From a phage, in NCBI GenBank assembly GCA_012212665.1, contig GCA_012212665.1_4517.1: 64,000 nt of DNA, one strand, 5' to 3'. The notes under the pieces are model-generated. The model saw only the letters and a program-made list of their open reading frames with translations. It was not told where the DNA came from and searched no databases. Made by a program: the position numbers and the translations under genes. Positions 7,770 to 63,464 of the stretch are shown in pieces (the first letter of the stretch is position 1; the number at the start of each line of letters is the position of its first letter).

Positions 7770-8033
7770 TCATATCTCAACTTCCGTGAGTTCCATATAT
7801 CCTTTGTTGATAACCTCTTTAAGGTCTTTAGAAAGAATAACACCAAAATGGTCGTTCATATGTCCATTAACTAAACGAGTTATTTCGGCTTCAGATGACA
7901 TATAAGGCACGTCTGAGTCCCAATGAGATAGACCTAAATGGGTATAAATCATCCCTTCGTCATCTGCCGTGTTGTACATTGAAACAAATTCGCCTGTTAC
8001 TTTATGTTTTGCGTAGAAAAATTTAAATTTCAT
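7770..8033 (-). CDS. Hypothetical protein
   Basis: ORF of 87 aa with AGAGGA Shine-Dalgarno; preceded by promoter copy 2. Confidence 0.45.
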   Translation of the reverse strand: MKFKFFYAKHKVTGEFVSMYNTADDEGMIYTHLGLSHWDSDVPYMSSEAEITRLVNGHMNDHFGVILSKDLKEVINKGYMELTEVEI

Positions 8034-9869: not shown

Positions 9870-12083
9870 TTATTTGGCTGCTTCCACAGCCTTCATGAAT
9901 TTAACGATTTGAGCGACTTGTTCTTTAGAAAGAGTACCACGTCGTCCCATGTAGTCTGACACAATATGATAATTGGTTTCGAATTCAATAACCATTTTAT
10001 CATCATTATCGTAAGCATTATCTTTAAGCTTATCGAAAATTTTAGCACACAATTCTAACTTTTTATTCAGTTCTCTGTTAGTAGCACCTGAGAATCGATT
10101 CCATCCCCAACGATTATTTACTGTTGAGAGTTTTGCAAAATCTTTACTGATTTCTTTGTTTTTAGAGCTAAAATACTTACTAAGGAAGTTAAGCTCTTCA
10201 TTACGAGTAATATGATTCAAATAAGGCTGTGCTCTACGACTTGGTGATACATACTCATCATAATCCACTTTATCGATTAGCGTAATATAGTCATTAATTG
10301 ATTTTTCGAACAAGCATTCTACTTCACCAAGTTTACGAACTTTCTTAGCAATCTGTGGACGAACTACAGTGAACTCTTTAATACCTGACAAATCAGCAAT
10401 ACGGGTCAAGAAATTGGAGTCATAGTTCAACCAACCTTTATCTGCGTCAAGACATTCAGCATTAGAACGATTACGAACTATAGCATAACCTTGGATTTCA
10501 TCTGCTTCACTTGCCGGAATAAAGAGGTCTTCTGATACCCAAACATCGTTTTCATTCTTAAAGAATCGATGAGCACTTGGCGATTTAGGACGAGGCTCAT
10601 TAGTCCGTTTCCTGACTTCAATCCATGGCTTAACGATTTGTAAAAGCTCTGAAGTCTTGTACATGTTAATGTTGTCGCCATCAAAGATAACTTTAAGGCG
10701 TTCCAGAAGTTTCATTGCATCTTCGTCTGTAGGGTCAACGAATAGTACACTTTTACCAAAACCGCGTGGAACTTTACCAGTTAATTTAACCTCGTCTTTA
10801 GACATTTCAATTGAATTAAGAGCTCGCATTAATGGAACGCGTCCCTTAACGTCGTCAATAACAATTTCAACGTTTTTAATGTTAATGCCAATCAAACTGT
10901 TAATTGAAATGGTTGTCGTTGAGCTACCACTTTCACGAATACGACGAAGACGAGGGGATTCAACGATATCGTATACGACGCCAAGATTACACCACTCAGG
11001 CCCCATTTTAAAACGTTTGTACAACTCAGAATAAGTTAGTTGTTCTTTAGAGTATTTCAGTGATTCAATATTGGACCCGGCCTTTTCCATGTATTTACGA
11101 GCGGTATAGCCAAGAGAATCAATTTCACGGAACACATGGCGTGGGTATTTACAATCAATCCATTTCTTAGAATCTTCAGCGAACAATTTAGCATCGATTT
11201 CTGCAACACGTTTATGGATATTTGCTACTGTACGTTTATCAAATGACAATGCTTCACGAGACGGGGCTACATCTAGTTCACCCATAGGGAATTTAATATA
11301 AGCTGTAGTGCATCGCGTCATCATCCATGTTTGTTCTTTAATAACACTTCCGATCGGATATACAATACCGCCATAAACAGCCATGATATTACCACGTTCA
11401 CCCCATGGAGCTTCCTTGGCCAAATATACATCGTCAAATTCCGGGAAGTATTTGATATCTTTAACACCACGAACTTCTGCAATATCACCTAGAGGACGCA
11501 TAACATATGCAATTTCGGATGCAAACTTTTCAAAATCTTCCGGGTTAACCGGTACGACTACTTCTACACCCGTACGGTCATCAGGACCCATCTTATCTAC
11601 AAAGGTCGGCTTAATTTGTGGACCCGTGTCATCTTGGTAGATTACGTAACCACGAACTTCACCATTGTGATAAGACGTAAGGTTAAACGTATCGGTATAT
11701 GCTAGCGGAGCTTTAGAGCCGAGTCCGAATCCACCGATGAAATCGTTACTCGATGTTTTAGTTGAAGCAAAATATGAGTTATAGATTCCTGGCTCTTCGT
11801 CATTACCTCTAATGGTGAAATCACTCATACCAGGACCAAAGTCTCGAACTACAAAACGTGGGTCTAAACGACCTGGAGCCTGAACAATAAACTTATCAGT
11901 GCAACCGTTAAGAATTTGTCCATCGATACAGTTTGTAATTAATTCACGTACACAAGCCAATTCTTTGTTTGTATAAAGGTCATTAGACAAAATCTTATAA
12001 ACTTTGCTATTGCCTTGAATAGTGAATGCTGTGCTCTTACCGCCTGAACCAATAATCGTTTCTTTAGCCGTTTCAATAATCAT
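9870..12083 (-). CDS. rIIA: rIIA protein
   Basis: 737 aa; N-terminal region (LYTNK...VRELITN, PGRLDPRFV.RDFGPGMSDF, NDFIGGFGLGSK, GPQIKPTFV..MGPDD) matches T4 rIIA. Confidence 0.9.
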   Translation of the reverse strand: MIIETAKETIIGSGGKSTAFTIQGNSKVYKILSNDLYTNKELACVRELITNCIDGQILNGCTDKFIVQAPGRLDPRFVVRDFGPGMSDFTIRGNDEEPGIYNSYFASTKTSSNDFIGGFGLGSKAPLAYTDTFNLTSYHNGEVRGYVIYQDDTGPQIKPTFVDKMGPDDRTGVEVVVPVNPEDFEKFASEIAYVMRPLGDIAEVRGVKDIKYFPEFDDVYLAKEAPWGERGNIMAVYGGIVYPIGSVIKEQTWMMTRCTTAYIKFPMGELDVAPSREALSFDKRTVANIHKRVAEIDAKLFAEDSKKWIDCKYPRHVFREIDSLGYTARKYMEKAGSNIESLKYSKEQLTYSELYKRFKMGPEWCNLGVVYDIVESPRLRRIRESGSSTTTISINSLIGINIKNVEIVIDDVKGRVPLMRALNSIEMSKDEVKLTGKVPRGFGKSVLFVDPTDEDAMKLLERLKVIFDGDNINMYKTSELLQIVKPWIEVRKRTNEPRPKSPSAHRFFKNENDVWVSEDLFIPASEADEIQGYAIVRNRSNAECLDADKGWLNYDSNFLTRIADLSGIKEFTVVRPQIAKKVRKLGEVECLFEKSINDYITLIDKVDYDEYVSPSRRAQPYLNHITRNEELNFLSKYFSSKNKEISKDFAKLSTVNNRWGWNRFSGATNRELNKKLELCAKIFDKLKDNAYDNDDKMVIEFETNYHIVSDYMGRRGTLSKEQVAQIVKFMKAVEAAK

Positions 12084-17292: not shown

Positions 17293-17712
17293 TTATGCGA
17301 AAGCAGCTGGGCTATATTTTTTAATTTGGAATTCAGGAACTACCATGAACTGACCAGCGAAAACGATGTTATAAAGCTTAACACCATCTTCAACCCATTG
17401 GTCACTAATAAATCCGGCGATTTGCTTAGTTTTCCATGGCGTTCCATCAGTTGCCGCAGCAATAGTGAATTCATGGTCTTTTTCAACAGAAACTGATCTG
17501 CATAGTCCCCATTTGAACGCTTTTTCTTCTGGCTCAATGAACTGGCTTGAGACGTAGCCAATATTACCGTTAGCATCACGAACTTTAACTTGGTTACGAC
17601 CAAAAACCGGATCACTCACAGAAAGAACTTCAACCAACTTCCCGGCAACTTTAGAGCGAGAAGCAACAGATACATATACGTAATCACCTGTAGAGAGATT
17701 TACAATATTCAT
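17293..17712 (-). CDS. Hypothetical protein, member of a tandem paralogue family (shared C-terminal SDQWVEDG..LYNIVF motif)
   Basis: 139 aa; C-terminus GFISDQWVEDGVKLYNIVFAGQF.VV shared with the next two ORFs. Confidence 0.55.
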   Translation of the reverse strand: MNIVNLSTGDYVYVSVASRSKVAGKLVEVLSVSDPVFGRNQVKVRDANGNIGYVSSQFIEPEEKAFKWGLCRSVSVEKDHEFTIAAATDGTPWKTKQIAGFISDQWVEDGVKLYNIVFAGQFMVVPEFQIKKYSPAAFA

Positions 17713-17721
17713 AATAATTCC

Positions 17722-18207
17722 TTAAGCTTTACGAGGAGACACATAGCGAGTGATTTCAGATTCTTTAACAACTCGGAAGTCACCTAAGAATACGATATTG
17801 TATAACTTTTCACCATCTTCAACCCATTGGTCACTAATGAAGCCACACATAGTATCAGTTTTGTTTGGATAACCGTATTCATCGATGAAGTCAAATTCTT
17901 TATCAGTCTGGAATTCAACACCTTTACACAAGGCCCATTTGAACTGTGCATTAGGCTCTGTGGATTCAACTTTTTCTCTTGAAGCAAAAGCACCACTCAC
18001 AGGAGTTTCCAAGAACTTTGCACGAACATAAGCAAATTGGGTGTCCTGTGTCCCATGACTAGGAATAATACGAACTTTTACCTCAGAATCTTCATCTTTA
18101 ACGCCTTCTTTAAGTTGAATACTTACAACTTCGACCAATTTTCCTGCTGCTTTAGAACGAGATTTGTTAGATACGCGAACGATTTCACCAATAATACCAA
18201 GATTCAT
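17722..18207 (-). CDS. Hypothetical protein, tandem paralogue family member
   Basis: 161 aa; C-terminus GFISDQWVEDGEKLYNIVFLGDFRVV; N-terminal region also resembles the 17293..17712 product (KSRSKAAGKLVEV.S). Confidence 0.55.
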   Translation of the reverse strand: MNLGIIGEIVRVSNKSRSKAAGKLVEVVSIQLKEGVKDEDSEVKVRIIPSHGTQDTQFAYVRAKFLETPVSGAFASREKVESTEPNAQFKWALCKGVEFQTDKEFDFIDEYGYPNKTDTMCGFISDQWVEDGEKLYNIVFLGDFRVVKESEITRYVSPRKA

Positions 18208-18236: not shown

Positions 18237-18266
18237 ATTATACTCCATCCGTCCTTGGATGTACAA
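18237..18266 (-). promoter_or_regulatory. Early promoter (variant of the TTATACTCCAACCATCCTTGGTTGTAAAC family)
   Basis: Minus strand TTGTAC-18 nt-TATAAT upstream of the 17722..18207 gene. Confidence 0.45.
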
Positions 18267-18268
18267 CA

Positions 18269-18763
18269 TTAATTAAGGATATTAACCACAGCACTACGTG
18301 GAACTACACTAAAATCACCTGCATGAACAACGTTCAGAAGTTCAACACCGTCTTCAATCCACTGGTCAGTTACCCATCCATTTACTGGACCTGCGAACGG
18401 GCGTCGAATTGAAACATATTTACACAACAAATCAGTAGGCTCAATAGGCTTAATCAGAGTACCGTACATACAAGCGATATCCATATCAATACAGATGTCT
18501 TTAACGGGTTCTACTTCTTCAATCAACAGTTCAAAGTCGGTGCTTGGAAGGGCGGTAGTAGAAATTGTACCATATGAATTTTTAATTTCTAAGAATAACC
18601 AAGGGCCTTCAGCTTGTTTGATGAAGTTAACAATAGTGAAACTATTGCCTTGAGTGGCACCTAAAATTTCACAAAACTTTTCGTAAGCTCGCACTGAAGC
18701 ACTGTACCAGTTGATTTGTTTTTCGTCTTTCAGGATGTAAGTAGCCGTAGTATTGATATTCAT
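18269..18763 (-). CDS. Hypothetical protein, divergent tandem paralogue family member
   Basis: 164 aa; C-terminus GWVTDQWIEDGVELLNVVHAGDFSVV. Confidence 0.5.
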   Translation of the reverse strand: MNINTTATYILKDEKQINWYSASVRAYEKFCEILGATQGNSFTIVNFIKQAEGPWLFLEIKNSYGTISTTALPSTDFELLIEEVEPVKDICIDMDIACMYGTLIKPIEPTDLLCKYVSIRRPFAGPVNGWVTDQWIEDGVELLNVVHAGDFSVVPRSAVVNILN

Positions 18764-18794: not shown

Positions 18795-18824
18795 ATTATA
18801 CTCCAACCATCCTTGGTTGTAAAC
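18795..18824 (-). promoter_or_regulatory. Early promoter (conserved family block)
   Basis: Minus strand GTTTAC-18 nt-TATAAT; 30-bp block nearly identical to 60774..60803 and 61794..61822. Confidence 0.55.
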
Positions 18825-58824: not shown

Positions 58825-59084
58825 TTAAAATATTCTCGTAGTTGGTCAAATCCACCAATGTGACTTCCGTCAGGAGCAAACACCTGAGGCATCGTCAATC
58901 CAACATGTGTTTCACGTCCAAGCTTAGCCAGAAGCTCAGCAATTTTCTCATCATCAAAAACACCTTTTTCCGGCATAACATTAATGAATTCGAATGGCTG
59001 TTTCTTAACAGTCAGCAATCGTTTCGCATTATCGCAATAAATGCATTTATGAATAGTAGAGTCGTACCCGTACACTTTAAACAT
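58821..59084 (-). CDS. nrdC: Thioredoxin/glutaredoxin NrdC
   Basis: About 87 aa from MFKVYGYD; CIYC active site; near-identical to T4 NrdC (KRLLTVKKQPFEFIN.MPEKGVFDDEKIAELL.KLGR.T..GLTMPQVFAPDGSHIGGFDQLREYFK). Confidence 0.88.
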   Translation of the reverse strand: MFKVYGYDSTIHKCIYCDNAKRLLTVKKQPFEFINVMPEKGVFDDEKIAELLAKLGRETHVGLTMPQVFAPDGSHIGGFDQLREYFK

Positions 59085-59490
59085 TATTTTTCCTTTCATC
59101 GATTAAATATGCAACGCCAAATACAATACATGTAATAAAACCTGTGATACAGATAGAAACCAACAACACTGTACCAAAGAACCAAATCAAGTTATCTTTA
59201 GTAGTTTGTTTGATATCCATCTCACGAATTTCTATAGCTATCGTATCACCTTTATTCAGAAGCGTATAAAACGACGGTGATACACGCCTGTCAAAAACTC
59301 GTCCTTGCTCATCTTTATAGACTGCAATAAATTCCAATTTAGAATATTTTCCTGTAGATTGTCCTGAGATTAATTCCACTACCTCCACAGGAATTACTTT
59401 AGTTTCCATGTAAGTATTCTGGCTGTTCCAAATGAATGGAATAATAGCAAAAACTAAAGCTGCGATAAAACAACGAAGGCTATATCTCAT
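59077..59490 (-). CDS. Membrane protein
   Basis: 137 aa; N- and C-terminal hydrophobic helices. Confidence 0.5.
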   Translation of the reverse strand: MRYSLRCFIAALVFAIIPFIWNSQNTYMETKVIPVEVVELISGQSTGKYSKLEFIAVYKDEQGRVFDRRVSPSFYTLLNKGDTIAIEIREMDIKQTTKDNLIWFFGTVLLVSICITGFITCIVFGVAYLIDERKNNV

Positions 59491-59795
59491 TATAATGTTC
59501 TCTCAAAATTGTGGAAGCATTTACGGCATTTCAATTTCAAGTTATCAGTGGTCCAGTTAACCAGTTGGACTTGGATAGTTCCACATTCCGGACATGGGTG
59601 TTTTGCTGCCGATTTGGCAGCATTTTCACGTCGTTCAACCATTTTCATGATTTCGTTCCATGCTGGAGGAACGAACTCTTCTTCACCGTGGATTTTATCT
59701 CGCTGAACAAATTCAATCTTTGAACTATCGTCAATAAACTTAACCAAGCTGTGATTAGTGTTCATATCAATATCCTCTAAAAGACGTAGTTTCAT
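59490..59795 (-). CDS. Hypothetical protein with C-terminal zinc ribbon
   Basis: 101 aa; CPECG...CRKC. Confidence 0.5.
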   Translation of the reverse strand: MKLRLLEDIDMNTNHSLVKFIDDSSKIEFVQRDKIHGEEEFVPPAWNEIMKMVERRENAAKSAAKHPCPECGTIQVQLVNWTTDNLKLKCRKCFHNFERTL

Positions 59796-60745
59796 TATAA
59801 AACCTCAATGGCATTTCGTAAACCATCCGCTTTCGCATTCAGAGCTTTTAACGATTTAGTTTGTTCTGCAATCTGGGCTTCGACTTCTTTCAGACGAGAT
59901 TTGAGATATTCGCGTTCTTCTCTTAAGTTATCAACTTTTTCTGCTTTAGGCTCTTTAATAGTCTTAAGTTTATACTCGTTAGGGGACTTCAGCTTAATTC
60001 GGGTACGAGAACTGTATAACATTGAACCGTTATCTTCGGATTCGTCGAACGTTTCAACAACATCCATAGTCTCTAACAATGTAATAAGTTTATAAGACAA
60101 CGAACGAACGGTTTTGTTATGCTTATTAATTTCTTCAGCTTTCATGGTACCGAGATTACGTGAGTAGTAATAAGGAACCTGGATATCAATTGATAATGAT
60201 GCGTTACCATTACCGGTTGGTTTGAATACTGCAGTAACCCAATCTTTAACATGAACTTTATTTGTACGACCATCGCCACCTGTGAATAATTTACGAGAAT
60301 GTTTAAAAAGCATATTCACTTGGTTATTGAATTCACAAGCAAATTTATCAGCAAATTTAGTTTCAGGAATGGTAGATAACCAATCAGCCAAATGAGTCTT
60401 TTTAACATCATTAACAATAGTGAATTCAACCAAATCGGTTTTAGATGTCACAGATTTAATAAAGCTCGGCTTCATAAAGTTTTTGATGTTATCACGAGCT
60501 ACAGTAGAAGATAATAAACGAGAACGTTTGAACCATTGAAGCAGTGTCCCTAATGAATGAGAATATGCATTTTGAGTATCTTTACAGATATGATTTTCTT
60601 GGCCTGTGTATGTACCAAAATCGCGAAGAATACCACTTACTACATCTCGGTGTGGAACATCAAATCCTAGTGCACCAGAAGCGCGCTGAGCATGAACGTT
60701 AGCGATAAGACCGGCAAAGTATTCAATGTAATGTGAACGTGTCAT
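59795..60745 (-). CDS. Hypothetical protein with C-terminal coiled coil
   Basis: 316 aa; C-terminus LREEREYLKSRLKEVEAQIAEQTKSLKALNAKADGLRNAIEVL; own conserved early promoter. Confidence 0.5.
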   Translation of the reverse strand: MTRSHYIEYFAGLIANVHAQRASGALGFDVPHRDVVSGILRDFGTYTGQENHICKDTQNAYSHSLGTLLQWFKRSRLLSSTVARDNIKNFMKPSFIKSVTSKTDLVEFTIVNDVKKTHLADWLSTIPETKFADKFACEFNNQVNMLFKHSRKLFTGGDGRTNKVHVKDWVTAVFKPTGNGNASLSIDIQVPYYYSRNLGTMKAEEINKHNKTVRSLSYKLITLLETMDVVETFDESEDNGSMLYSSRTRIKLKSPNEYKLKTIKEPKAEKVDNLREEREYLKSRLKEVEAQIAEQTKSLKALNAKADGLRNAIEVL

Positions 60746-60773
60746 AATATTTTCCTCTCGTTAAGATAGGTTC

Positions 60774-60803
60774 ATTATACTCCAACCATCCTTGGTTGTA
60801 AAC
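60774..60803 (-). promoter_or_regulatory. Early promoter (conserved family block)
   Basis: TTATACTCCAACCATCCTTGGTTGTAAAC on the forward strand, i.e. GTTTAC-18 nt-TATAAT on the minus strand; near-identical to 18795..18824. Confidence 0.55.
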
Positions 60804-60807
60804 TGAT

Positions 60808-61767
60808 TTATGATTTTAACGCATTCATTGCGTTAAAAAGTTTAGAGTACTGCAACTGGAGCTTAGTAACTACTTGTTGAGCATCACGAAGCTTAGCTTG
60901 TGCTTTGTCAAGTTCAACAGACAGTTGGTCCATAGTGGCCTTGATTTGATTGTAATGGTAATCTTCGACCGGAAGAAGGTCATTAGAAACATTTAGTTTT
61001 ACTGCAGACAGTTTGCACACATTTGGCAAACCTTTAAACATTGATTTACCCGAAGTAGAATAAGCACTTAGGACTTCGGCCTGTTCAATTGGGGTCCCAG
61101 TAAGCGATGCTTCAAACAATGCATTTTCCTTTTTAAGATTTTGATAATATTCGGAGTCTTTGTGCCACCATGGCGCAGGAACCTTTTTACCAATAGATAC
61201 ACGAGCCTGGATAGCGATATGGCCCTTATTCTTGATAGGGTCGATAATATTAAGCTCACGAGAATAAATTGCTTTAATCTGGTGGATATTATCACCTAAC
61301 ACTTCCAACGCTTGGTGGAATACACGAGCAACGTTATCATTCTTAGGTTTATACGTAAGAGTGAACTCATTCTCACTGATAACCATGATTTCCAACTTAT
61401 CGTAAGTATATTTCAAATGTTTCATGTTAATTGCTTGAGGACGAATACGAGAAGCAATGGCCATCAGATTGTTAAGGTTATTCCGGAACTGCTTAGCGAA
61501 ATATTGTCCTTCACCGCCAATACAAAAATTACGAAGTTTCTGTTTGGCTAATAAACGGCTGAACTCACCATTTTTAATGAACTCTTTAACGGGTGTGTTA
61601 GTAACGCATTCAAATTGGGTAAACATACGAGAAGTAATCCCATAATATGAACAGATTTCCTCAATCTCTTCAGGAGTCTTTACAGGCATACGGATAGGAT
61701 TAGGTCCTGGAGTATATGCGTTCGAGGTAAATTCTTTGATAAGTTCTCTACGTGTAATAAAAGCCAT
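60808..61767 (-). CDS. Hypothetical protein with C-terminal coiled coil
   Basis: 319 aa; C-terminus QLSVELDKAQAKLRDAQQVVTKLQLQYSKLFNAMNALKS. Confidence 0.5.
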   Translation of the reverse strand: MAFITRRELIKEFTSNAYTPGPNPIRMPVKTPEEIEEICSYYGITSRMFTQFECVTNTPVKEFIKNGEFSRLLAKQKLRNFCIGGEGQYFAKQFRNNLNNLMAIASRIRPQAINMKHLKYTYDKLEIMVISENEFTLTYKPKNDNVARVFHQALEVLGDNIHQIKAIYSRELNIIDPIKNKGHIAIQARVSIGKKVPAPWWHKDSEYYQNLKKENALFEASLTGTPIEQAEVLSAYSTSGKSMFKGLPNVCKLSAVKLNVSNDLLPVEDYHYNQIKATMDQLSVELDKAQAKLRDAQQVVTKLQLQYSKLFNAMNALKS

Positions 61768-61793
61768 TTTATATTCCTCATGTTGAAAAATTT

Positions 61794-61822
61794 ATTATAC
61801 TCCAACCATCCTTGGTTGTACA
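61794..61822 (-). promoter_or_regulatory. Early promoter (conserved family block, -35 variant TGTACA)
   Basis: TTATACTCCAACCATCCTTGGTTGTACA block upstream of the 60808..61767 gene. Confidence 0.5.
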
Positions 61823-62818
61823 TCATTCCTTAAGAAGTTTTACTACCTGAATAAGATTAGCTCGTTCTGTTTTATTTTTACCATTTAAGCCTGCTAATCG
61901 TGAGATTTCATCGTCAGTCTGTTGAATAGTTACATTAAGTTCATTAATCAAAGCTTCAAAGTATTTGATTTGCTCAGCATGTTTTGATTCAAATTTCTGA
62001 ACCGGAATAACGTCTTGGTTTAGTTCGTCAATAAGGTCTTTAAGAGCATCTTCTTGGTTGATATCATATTCAACTTCTTTTATTTCTTCAACGAGCTCGT
62101 CTTTATATCTAACGTCTTTTAGTCCTGGTGCTGGTCCTGAAATCTCTTCTTTAAGAGTACAAACATACCCAATACGGTATCCAATGCCGTCTCGCTTAAT
62201 ATCAACTTCGTCGATAAATCCACAATGTTTAAGACCAGAGCCGATTATGTCAAAATATCCTTGACGTCGTCCTTCAAACGTTACACGAACTACTAAGACA
62301 GTTTTGCCACCAACCTTTTGAAGCTCACATTTATAAAAGTCTGTTGAACCTGAATAACGTGGATGAGTTTTAAAGTTCATCTGACGATCTAGGCCCATTT
62401 GTAAACGTGCTGTTACGGCCATAAAACGTGTTTGGTTCTCGTTAAGATGAGCAACAATCCATTTCAAAGGCATTTTACACTGTTCACGACCGAACAAATC
62501 AGTACGTCCTAGATTACGCAGGATATTGTTAGAGTTAATCATCGACAGAACGTTAAGTTTATTCAGCGCGCTGAAGATTCCATCAGCCATTGATTTTCCA
62601 TAACCTTTACACGCTTTAATAAGTGCTCGCGGCAGATTAGTATAGATTTCAGACGGCATATGAAAATCAAATTTACTAGTCAGTAATTGATGAACTTGGA
62701 TAGCAATTTGCTCATAATTAAGTGCTCTGCGATCGTTATGGTCTTTAAACCACACTTTAATCTGTGAAGCACATAAACCGTTAATTTCATGTTTTACCGC
62801 ATCAGATGTAATGCTCAT
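61823..62818 (-). CDS. Hypothetical protein with acidic region and C-terminal coiled coil
   Basis: 331 aa. Confidence 0.5.
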   Translation of the reverse strand: MSITSDAVKHEINGLCASQIKVWFKDHNDRRALNYEQIAIQVHQLLTSKFDFHMPSEIYTNLPRALIKACKGYGKSMADGIFSALNKLNVLSMINSNNILRNLGRTDLFGREQCKMPLKWIVAHLNENQTRFMAVTARLQMGLDRQMNFKTHPRYSGSTDFYKCELQKVGGKTVLVVRVTFEGRRQGYFDIIGSGLKHCGFIDEVDIKRDGIGYRIGYVCTLKEEISGPAPGLKDVRYKDELVEEIKEVEYDINQEDALKDLIDELNQDVIPVQKFESKHAEQIKYFEALINELNVTIQQTDDEISRLAGLNGKNKTERANLIQVVKLLKE

Positions 62819-62880
62819 AACTATTTCCTCAGATTGAATTGGAACTCAAAACCATTATAACCCGTCCTTGGGTAAAGCGT

Positions 62881-63435: not shown

Positions 63436-63464
63436 ATAATAACATAACCATAGACCTTGTAAAC
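63436..63464 (-). promoter_or_regulatory. Early promoter
   Basis: Minus strand GTTTAC-17 nt-TATTAT with the GGTCTATAATA block shared with 4971 and 29971. Confidence 0.5.

Follow-up and report, generated by a model that had tools for sequence, protein, structure and literature searches.

The window analysed in this study, a 64,000-nucleotide stretch of phage DNA (GenBank assembly GCA_012212665.1, contig GCA_012212665.1_4517.1), contains three consecutive open reading frames (ORFs) of similar length, each ending in a predicted coiled coil, and thereby raises the question of whether these are dissimilar proteins that carry a common module or diverged copies of one gene, and what such a set of genes might do for the phage. 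The ORFs are referred to throughout as W1 (59795-60745), W2 (60808-61767) and W3 (61823-62818). All three lie where the initial annotation had placed them, as single minus-strand ORFs encoding 316, 319 and 331 amino acids (aa), respectively; each has a Shine-Dalgarno sequence before its ATG, and all three are annotated as genes in ~130 near-identical phage genomes. The reading that we favour, and hold with moderate confidence, is that the trio are tandem, very divergent nrdC.3/nrdC.5/nrdC.6 paralogues that encode early accessory counter-defence proteins with separate targets. Unless stated otherwise, the coordinates of the three genes, their parts and their promoters refer to the minus strand.

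A comparison with the nrdC.x region of phage T4, as the initial annotation had proposed, identified W1, W2 and W3 as the counterparts of nrdC.3, nrdC.5 and nrdC.6, with synteny kept. W1 is the orthologue of T4 NrdC.3 and belongs to the NrdC.3/NrdC.4 family (phrog_1435, E 1.9e-101): it matches the family hidden Markov model over its full length, has its best reciprocal similarity to T4 NrdC.3 (56% identity at full length, 317 columns), and its homologues carry the precomputed Pfam assignment PF26897 in 33 of 33 clusters. T4 NrdC.3 and T4 NrdC.4 are themselves both assigned to phrog_1435. W2 belongs to the NrdC.5 family (Pfam DUF7235, PF23882; phrog_2351, E 8.7e-99), scoring 412 bits against a cut-off of 30 over residues 15-318 and profile positions 1-307 of DUF7235, a model on which T4 NrdC.5 scores 420.6 bits. 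The two proteins are 24.7% identical over 308 aa, and W2 sits in a Mosigvirus-specific branch (144 phage records). W3 belongs to the NrdC.6 family (phrog_2257, E 1.6e-127), which it matches over the full length of the model; it is 29.3% identical to T4 NrdC.6 (E 2.5e-18), and clusters of its homologues carry the precomputed assignment PF26899. With these identities W2 and W3 lie furthest from T4 of all syntenic orthologues in the window (median identity 66% for 50 ORFs), and they can therefore be regarded as fast-evolving; the neighbouring NrdC and NrdC.8 are 92% and 83% identical to their T4 versions. All three families are restricted to T-even phages of enterobacteria. A search for related loci in viral contigs returned four loci only, and a whole-library HMMER search with the W3 family returned six cluster representatives among 1.84 billion, which marks the family as narrow. 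The near-identical lengths pointed out in the initial annotation hold for W1-W3 themselves and only loosely as a family trait, the relatives ranging from 275 to 349 aa.

Variation within the families was also observed. In the phage collection, NrdC.3 proteins fall into bands of identity to W1, with >90% in Mosigvirus and ~75% and ~55% in Tequatrovirus-type phages; the ~55% band includes T4, T6 and RB27, and the three bands occur among otherwise similar phages, a pattern that suggests allele exchange or strong diversifying selection. The C-terminal tail of W3 is ~50 residues longer than that of T4 NrdC.6 (275 aa; 10067-10894 of the T4 locus L003), and the version in two T4-like metagenomic contigs has 295 aa, so the length of the coiled-coil tail varies in the NrdC.6 family.

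The relationship among the three families emerged from profile comparisons. Pairwise BLASTP among W1, W2 and W3 returned no match (E 0.26-3.5), and hhalign on shallow family alignments gave probabilities of ~1%; sequences from T4, Dhakavirus and Gaprivervirus had to be added before a cross-family hhalign signal appeared. The deeper alignments drew on the window, T4, two T4-like metagenomic contigs, Bp7, SHP1, VR7, CJ20 and phage 212, and the coiled coils were cut from the profiles because the tails could otherwise drive the score. Under these conditions the NrdC.3/4 profile matched NrdC.5 with a score of 41.5 (E 2e-5, probability 77%), against a column-shuffle null of 12.5 +/- 1.7 with a maximum of 16.8. 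NrdC.6 scored 20.2 against NrdC.5 (E 0.043) and 22.4 against NrdC.3/4 (E 0.022), each exceeding 60 of 60 shuffles. With merged profiles the scores were 40.9 for NrdC.3/4 plus NrdC.5 versus NrdC.6 (E 2.7e-5; null 11.2 +/- 2.4, maximum 19.2), 41.9 for NrdC.5 plus NrdC.6 versus NrdC.3/4 (E 1.6e-5) and 48.7 for NrdC.3/4 plus NrdC.6 versus NrdC.5 (E 1.2e-6, probability 91%). Profile similarity thus extends across all the families, with NrdC.6 significant only against merged profiles. NrdC.10 and NrdC.11, unrelated control families drawn from the same loci, scored 11-16 against any family or merged profile (E 0.17-0.79), and reversed alignments scored within this control range. When family profiles were run with HMMER against 173 ORFs, the top non-member matches of every profile were members of the other two families, and neither the window nor T4 1-58 kb yielded a further paralogue. 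Aligning the three families jointly with MAFFT did not give a usable superfamily profile, W1 being misplaced relative to the hhalign result.

The hhalign segments are mutually consistent across all three family pairs and delimit a homologous core in each protein. In W1 this core covers residues ~61-258 (59972..60565), with motif 1 FKRSRLLSSTVARDNIKNF and motif 2 FACEFNNQVNMLFKHSRKL; in W2 it covers residues ~60-200 (61168..61590), with motif 1 IKNGEFSRLLAKQKLRNF and motif 2 FAKQFRNNLNNLMAIASRI; and in W3 it covers residues ~69-200 (62219..62614), with motif 1 LNKLNVLSMINSNNILRNL and motif 2 IVAHLNENQTRFMAVTARL. The AlphaFold2 models of W1 and W2 (built from a 23-sequence alignment and from 16 sequences, respectively), although of low confidence, have the same order of elements, namely helices, a long motif-2 helix, three strands, a helix, two strands, a linker and a tail helix, and this order lines up with the hhalign alignment. 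The layout proposed for all three would consist of a helical N-terminal part, a core in which the two conserved motifs precede a predicted beta-beta-beta-alpha-beta-beta unit, a variable linker and a C-terminal heptad helix.

The C-terminal tails fit this layout, and the coiled coil noted at the end of each protein was recovered by a heptad scan in all three and as an AlphaFold2 helix in W1 and W2. The heptad-repeat helix of W1 comprises residues ~271-316 (59798..59935; AlphaFold2 helix 275-315) and that of W2 residues ~266-319 (60811..60972; AlphaFold2 helix 266-318), while W3 has a heptad-repeat segment (residues 281-309) and a terminal helix (61826..61978). The best 28-residue heptad window of each whole protein is at its C-terminus (W1 279-316, W2 269-319, W3 281-309) and exceeds 200 of 200 shuffles of the same protein, with modest z-scores of 3.1-4.0. 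By eye, the tail registers place V, R, L, I, L, A and I at position a and L, L, V, Q, L, L and L at position d in W1; I, L, A, A, L, L and L at a and M, L, L, V, Y and M at d in W2; and I, I, I and I at a and F, L, T and L at d in W3. All three tails thus have at least four uninterrupted heptads with hydrophobic a and d positions and a predicted helix. Sub-threshold Pfam matches in the tails are exclusively to coiled-coil families, and the NCBIfam matches, again sub-threshold only, are likewise to coiled coils. The C-terminal helix is the best-scoring stretch of the otherwise poor W1 and W2 models, and the coiled coil probably dimerises the protein.

From the profile comparisons we conclude that W1, W2 and W3 are, as judged by sequence, remote paralogues along most of their length with one whole-length architecture. 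Two claims of the initial annotation do not survive this result: the N-terminal domains, described there as not obviously similar, show remote homology once the coiled coil is removed from the profiles, and the coiled coil, proposed there as a shared oligomerisation module, is an inherited part of one ancestral architecture and not a module common to different domains. Assignment of the three proteins to unrelated, well-characterised families with no common architecture had been named as the outcome that would speak against the proposal; they do fall into separate Pfam and PHROGs families, and yet these families are remotely homologous and have a common architecture.

The trio are not uniform in their promoters. 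A 26-nucleotide (nt) block, TTATACTCCAACCATCCTTGGTTGTA, occurs exactly at 60775-60800 and at 61795-61820, upstream of W1 and W2 (chance expectation 0.00), as the initial annotation had noted for two of the genes; a third exact copy at 18796 and a copy with three mismatches at 18238 both lie upstream of motB-like genes. Read on the coding strand, the block has TTTACA or TGTACA, 17 nt, TATAAT, in agreement with the published T4/PST early promoter consensus, TTTACW-N17-TAYWAT (PMC4122927). Early promoters were called where (G)TTTAC(A/T) at -35 and TATAAT or TAYWAT at -10, separated by 17 +/- 1 nt, lay on the coding strand upstream of a gene. Since a scan with the generic sigma-70 consensus found no enrichment over shuffles (26 found, 26.1 expected), the promoter calls rest on the T4-specific pattern, exact repeats, strand and intergenic position. 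By sequence, W1 has such a T4-type early promoter (TTTACA, 17 nt, TATAAT; 60774..60802), whose spacer contains the hairpin CAACC-AAGGAT-GGTTG (60783-60798), and so does W2 (TGTACA, 17 nt, TATAAT; 61794..61822), with the same spacer hairpin at 61803-61818. W3 does not: its upstream region has no -35 hexamer at the right distance and holds a shortened variant, CGCTTTA, 13 nt, TATAAT (62854..62879), with the hairpin ACCC-AAGGAC-GGGT at 62860-62873. The early-promoter proposal for the trio therefore stands for W1 and W2, while the claim that each gene has its own copy of the block fails for W3. Because copies also precede motB-like genes, the block is to be regarded as a promoter class of this phage and not as a mark of the gene family.

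Transcription of W3 could be achieved in two other ways. An early-type promoter (TTTACA, 16 nt, TATTAT; 63436..63463) lies upstream of the nrdC.8 homologue and would likely give read-through transcription into W3. The MotA box has the consensus (a/t)(a/t)(a/t)TGCTT(t/c)A and lies ~12 nt upstream of the -10 element. The sequence upstream of W3, aaaCGCTTTA, 13 nt, TATAAT, differs from this consensus by one mismatch (C for T) and may thus be a MotA-dependent middle promoter; the published core of the box is TGCTT (PMC4122927). A similar unit, CATAA(a/c)CGCTTTA-TACCAAGGATGGTATAAT, stands directly after a stop codon and recurs nearly base for base in T4 (before nrdC.7) and in Bp7 and VR7 (before nrdC.6), at ~11320-11350 of locus L003, ~6780-6815 of L008 and ~3815-3845 of L010, with the variant upstream of W3; in this unit the -10 element is the 3' arm of the hairpin, and it looks like a MotA-box middle promoter. 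A further promoter-like sequence (TTTACG, 17 nt, TATAAT; 59794-59822, minus strand) overlaps the final codons of W1, immediately ahead of the nrdC.2 homologue.

The hairpin embedded in these promoters has a constant loop, AAGGAY, and a stem of 4-7 bp. An inverted repeat forms the spacer of the block, and CCAAGGAYGG occurs five times in the window (0.15 expected), always on the coding strand in promoters, at 18249-18258, 18807-18816, 60786-60795, 61806-61815 and 62862-62871 (all minus strand). The AAGGAY sites of the window separate into 56 with flanking arms of 0-2 bp and five with arms of 4-5 bp, and all five of the latter are in promoters, where the hairpin either lies between the -35 and -10 elements of an early-type promoter or overlaps the -10 element of a MotA-box-like promoter. 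The hairpin is also found upstream of T4 rIIA.1, nrdC.3, nrdC.4 and nrdC.7 (T4 sites at 7903, 8960 and 11346 of L003 and 2444 of L025) and upstream of nrdC.4 and nrdC.6 in Dhaka- and Gapriverviruses, and is thus conserved across four T-even genera. Eight distinct versions of the stem occur across T4, Mosig-, Dhaka- and Gaprivervirus, with compensatory changes (CAACC/GGTTG, CATCC/GGATG, ACCC/GGGT, AGCC/GGCT, CCAC/GTGG and TTATACC/GGTATAA). Among ten distinct hairpin copies 86.7% of cells are paired, compared to 57.8 +/- 4.9 when shuffled (0 of 500 reach the observed value) and 26-50% when slid; the inner three stem pairs were part of the search criterion, and the independent signal is in pairs 4 and 5. 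No match was found in Rfam for 56-64 kb, no description of an AAGGAY promoter hairpin was found in the literature searched, and for CCAAGGATGG the papers listed in a literature search were all unrelated. The hairpin may tune the promoter, may form an RNA structure where read-through transcription includes it, or may be a recombination joint at the borders of nrdC.3 and nrdC.4 gain and loss. The idea of a RegB/S1 site was set aside as speculation; GGAGUAUAAU, which follows the hairpin and includes GGAG, fits the published GGAGRAYARAA consensus only partly.

It is possible, though in our judgement doubtful, that the repeated promoter block is a mere remnant of cassette duplication or gene conversion and that its spacer palindrome is without a separate function. 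Identity extends over 26-35 nt among three copies of the block in the window, T4-type phages are known to recombine between repeated promoter cassettes (PMC2839356, PMC4122927), and the predicted hairpin is weak, with an unremarkable energy of -6.9 kcal/mol and non-significant folding z-scores (-0.02 to -1.9). A remnant of this kind does not, however, account easily for a loop that stays constant while the stem covaries across four genera, or for the division of AAGGAY sites into those with stems of 0-2 bp and those with stems of 4-5 bp, the latter all in promoters.

The motB-like genes that share the block form a trio of their own, adjacent at 17293-17712, 17722-18207 and 18269-18763 (minus strand), with the C-terminal motif DQW(V/I)EDG..L.N(I/V)V..G.F.VV in common. 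Their best T4 matches are MotB (58% and 37%) and MotB.1 (37%); they constitute a second set of tandem paralogues, two members of which stand behind an AAGGAY hairpin promoter.

An experimental indication of function comes from T4 NrdC.5. A T4 deletion mutant is unable to plate on Escherichia coli ECOR17, and disruption of dsr1, which encodes the ECOR17 defence sirtuin Dsr1, restored plating; cloned dsr1 protects MG1655, and T4 nrdC.5 supplied in trans restores plaquing of the mutant on MG1655 with ECOR17 dsr1 (Srikant, Guegler and Laub, eLife 2022, PMC9391042). No other functional report on nrdC.3-6 was found in the literature searched. By analogy, this phenotype supports an anti-defence reading of the family, and a counter-defence role would suit a set of genes that are non-essential, early, fast-evolving and variable in copy number and that include one member with a defence-specific phenotype. 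Four genera of Tevenvirinae (Tequatrovirus, Mosigvirus, Dhakavirus and Gaprivervirus) have the gene order nrdC-.1-.2-(.3)-.4-.5-(small ORF)-.6-.8 in common; nrdC.3 and nrdC.4 occur together in Tequatrovirus, Mosigvirus has nrdC.3 only, and Dhakavirus and Gaprivervirus have nrdC.4 only. The proposed explanation is that W1-W3 would be non-essential accessory proteins made early in infection, with W1 and W2 transcribed from their own T4-type early promoters and W3 probably from read-through and a MotA-box-like promoter. Each paralogue would then bind and neutralise a different host immunity protein via its fast-evolving core, the coiled coil would provide dimerisation, and the NrdC.5 member would be aimed at Dsr1-type defence sirtuins. 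The anti-defence activity, direct binding, oligomeric state and expression timing of W1-W3 are what we infer from these comparisons.

Several points weigh against this explanation. The counter-defence phenotype is known for T4 NrdC.5 alone, and its extension to NrdC.3, NrdC.4, NrdC.6 and the Mosigvirus copies goes by family membership; even the target of W2 may differ from that of T4 NrdC.5, given an identity of only ~25%. The proposal of an anti-defence effector family made in the initial annotation is therefore strengthened in respect of paralogy and the T4 nrdC.5 anti-Dsr1 phenotype, while the activity of W1-W3 themselves stays presumptive. The link to NrdC.6 is marginal in single pairs (scores 20-22, E 0.02-0.04), and its score falls to ~17 without Mosigvirus sequences. 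The heptad score is home-made and ad hoc. The proposed structure check gave AlphaFold2 models of low confidence (mean predicted local distance difference test, pLDDT, 48.7 for W1 and 42.0 for W2), since the available homologues are too alike; Foldseek searches of both models against BFVD returned orthologues only, at template modelling (TM) scores of 0.2-0.3, plus noise. The searches brought up neither a solved structure nor an informative fold match, profile searches of PDB sequences yielding no match below E 0.18, and no catalytic or binding motif was recognised in W1-W3.

An unlikely alternative is that the trio form a paralogous family of host-takeover or nucleic-acid-binding regulators, such as dimeric DNA or RNA binders that influence host or phage gene expression in the manner of MotB and other T4 early proteins, and not immune antagonists. 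Early promoters ahead of the genes would suit such regulators, the same promoter cassette drives the motB-like genes at 17.7-18.8 kb, DNA-binding proteins commonly combine a coiled-coil dimer with a small alpha/beta domain, and functional data on the families of the trio exist for T4 NrdC.5 alone. That sole tested member, however, has a defence-specific phenotype, the T4 genes lie in deletable regions, and no DNA-binding family was detected in W1-W3 with Pfam or NCBIfam; in addition, a divergence well beyond the genome average and presence/absence variation between genera fit an arms race better than housekeeping regulation. The notion that the three proteins are unrelated, similar size and low-complexity coiled-coil tails being common among phage ORFs, could draw on the failed BLASTP and shallow hhalign comparisons and on the separate PHROGs and Pfam families, but it is largely refuted and in our view very improbable, as cross-family hhalign scores from the deeper, coil-free alignments reach 41-49 (E 1e-5 to 1e-6) against 11-19 for nulls and controls, the motifs are consistent over three pairs, HMMER places the other two families at the top of 173 ORFs, and T4 NrdC.3 and NrdC.4 already share one PHROG.

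Beyond the counter-defence paralogues proposed for the window, a broader and more tentative possibility is that NrdC.3-6 are one ancient, rapidly diversifying counter-defence superfamily of T-even coiled-coil proteins, each paralogue having its own host immune sensor or effector as target (Dsr1 in the case of NrdC.5), and that the hairpin cassettes would act as a functional RNA or DNA element, regulating the genes and providing a recombination joint for the gain, loss and exchange of copies among phages; we rate this as less probable than the narrower proposal. No earlier description of the NrdC.3, NrdC.4 and NrdC.6 families as relatives of NrdC.5 was found in the databases and literature searched. 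What is new in this study is that the nrdC.3-6 families are remote paralogues and that a covarying hairpin is embedded in the promoters; otherwise, known T-even genes account for most of the observation. If nrdC.3, nrdC.4, nrdC.5 and nrdC.6 are one family, what is known of nrdC.5 and Dsr1 can be turned into a specific hypothesis about four genes across ~650 sequenced T-even phages: every copy might inhibit a defence system of its own, and specificity could be mapped with the help of natural sequence variation. Should the hairpin prove functional, T-even early transcription would gain a further small element, with a role in regulation or recombination. The nrdC.x genes of T4, the best-studied phage, are still labelled hypothetical or, wrongly, thioredoxin. 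Many GenBank T-even records call the nrdC.3, nrdC.5 and nrdC.6 homologues 'thioredoxin', and one neighbour a 'Mur ligase domain' protein; no thioredoxin family match was found for W1, W2 or W3 in Pfam or NCBIfam, and the thioredoxin label seems to be a carry-over from the name of the nrdC gene.

The genes surrounding the trio place it in a variable region, as initially suggested, namely the nrdC-mobD region of a T-even phage. The window belongs to a Mosigvirus, and a 4.1-kb region with W1-W3 matches many Mosigvirus genomes (RB69/JS09-like T-even coliphages) at 97-98% identity. In the annotated relatives ATK47 and Mizar the region is flanked by nrdC and nrdC.8, and its genes all lie on the same strand (minus in the window). 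Downstream of W1-W3 lie endonuclease VII, pin, nrdC and homologues of nrdC.7 and nrdC.2, and upstream lie homologues of nrdC.8 and nrdC.9. The nrdC.7 homologue, a predicted membrane protein (59077-59490, minus strand) with 41% identity to T4, stands directly after nrdC, while T4 nrdC.7 stands between nrdC.6 and nrdC.8, which indicates local gene rearrangement between genera. The start codon of the nrdC.2 homologue (59490-59795) overlaps the stop codon of W1.

Compared to known systems, W2 is closest to T4 NrdC.5, with which it shares an end-to-end match to the same Pfam model, a position between nrdC.3/4 and nrdC.6, a similar size and a C-terminal heptad helix ending in ...KL.NA.NAL; the proteins differ in sequence (~25% identity), and anti-Dsr1 activity of W2 is presumed from T4. 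T4 NrdC.3, NrdC.4 and NrdC.6, conserved hypothetical early proteins, have the same synteny as W1 and W3, one difference being that the window is without nrdC.4. The promoter block resembles the promoter-early stem-loop (PeSL) cassettes of T4-type phages (Arbiol et al. 2010, PMC2839356; Comeau et al. 2014, PMC4122927) in being a short, repeated, intergenic sigma-70-type early promoter with a stem-loop between accessory ORFs in hyperplastic regions, and it occurs in five copies in the window, bordering the presence or absence of nrdC.3 and nrdC.4 between genera. In PeSLs, by contrast, the stem-loop lies upstream of the -35 element and works as a terminator (PMC2839356, PMC4122927), whereas the hairpin described here lies in the 17-nt spacer or overlaps the -10 element, is followed by no T-run and keeps its AAGGAY loop unchanged. 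DSAD1, the anti-DSR2 protein of SPbeta-like Bacillus phages, neutralises a defence-associated sirtuin and comes nearest to a mechanistic model of how NrdC.5 might act; host, phage group and target (DSR2, not Dsr1) differ, and the two are likened by function only. Finally, the ipI-III locus and the dmd-tifA-adfA island similarly consist of non-essential, fast-varying early T-even genes, each directed against a strain-specific host defence, but they hold unrelated small proteins, whereas W1-W3 are ~300-aa paralogues with a common architecture.

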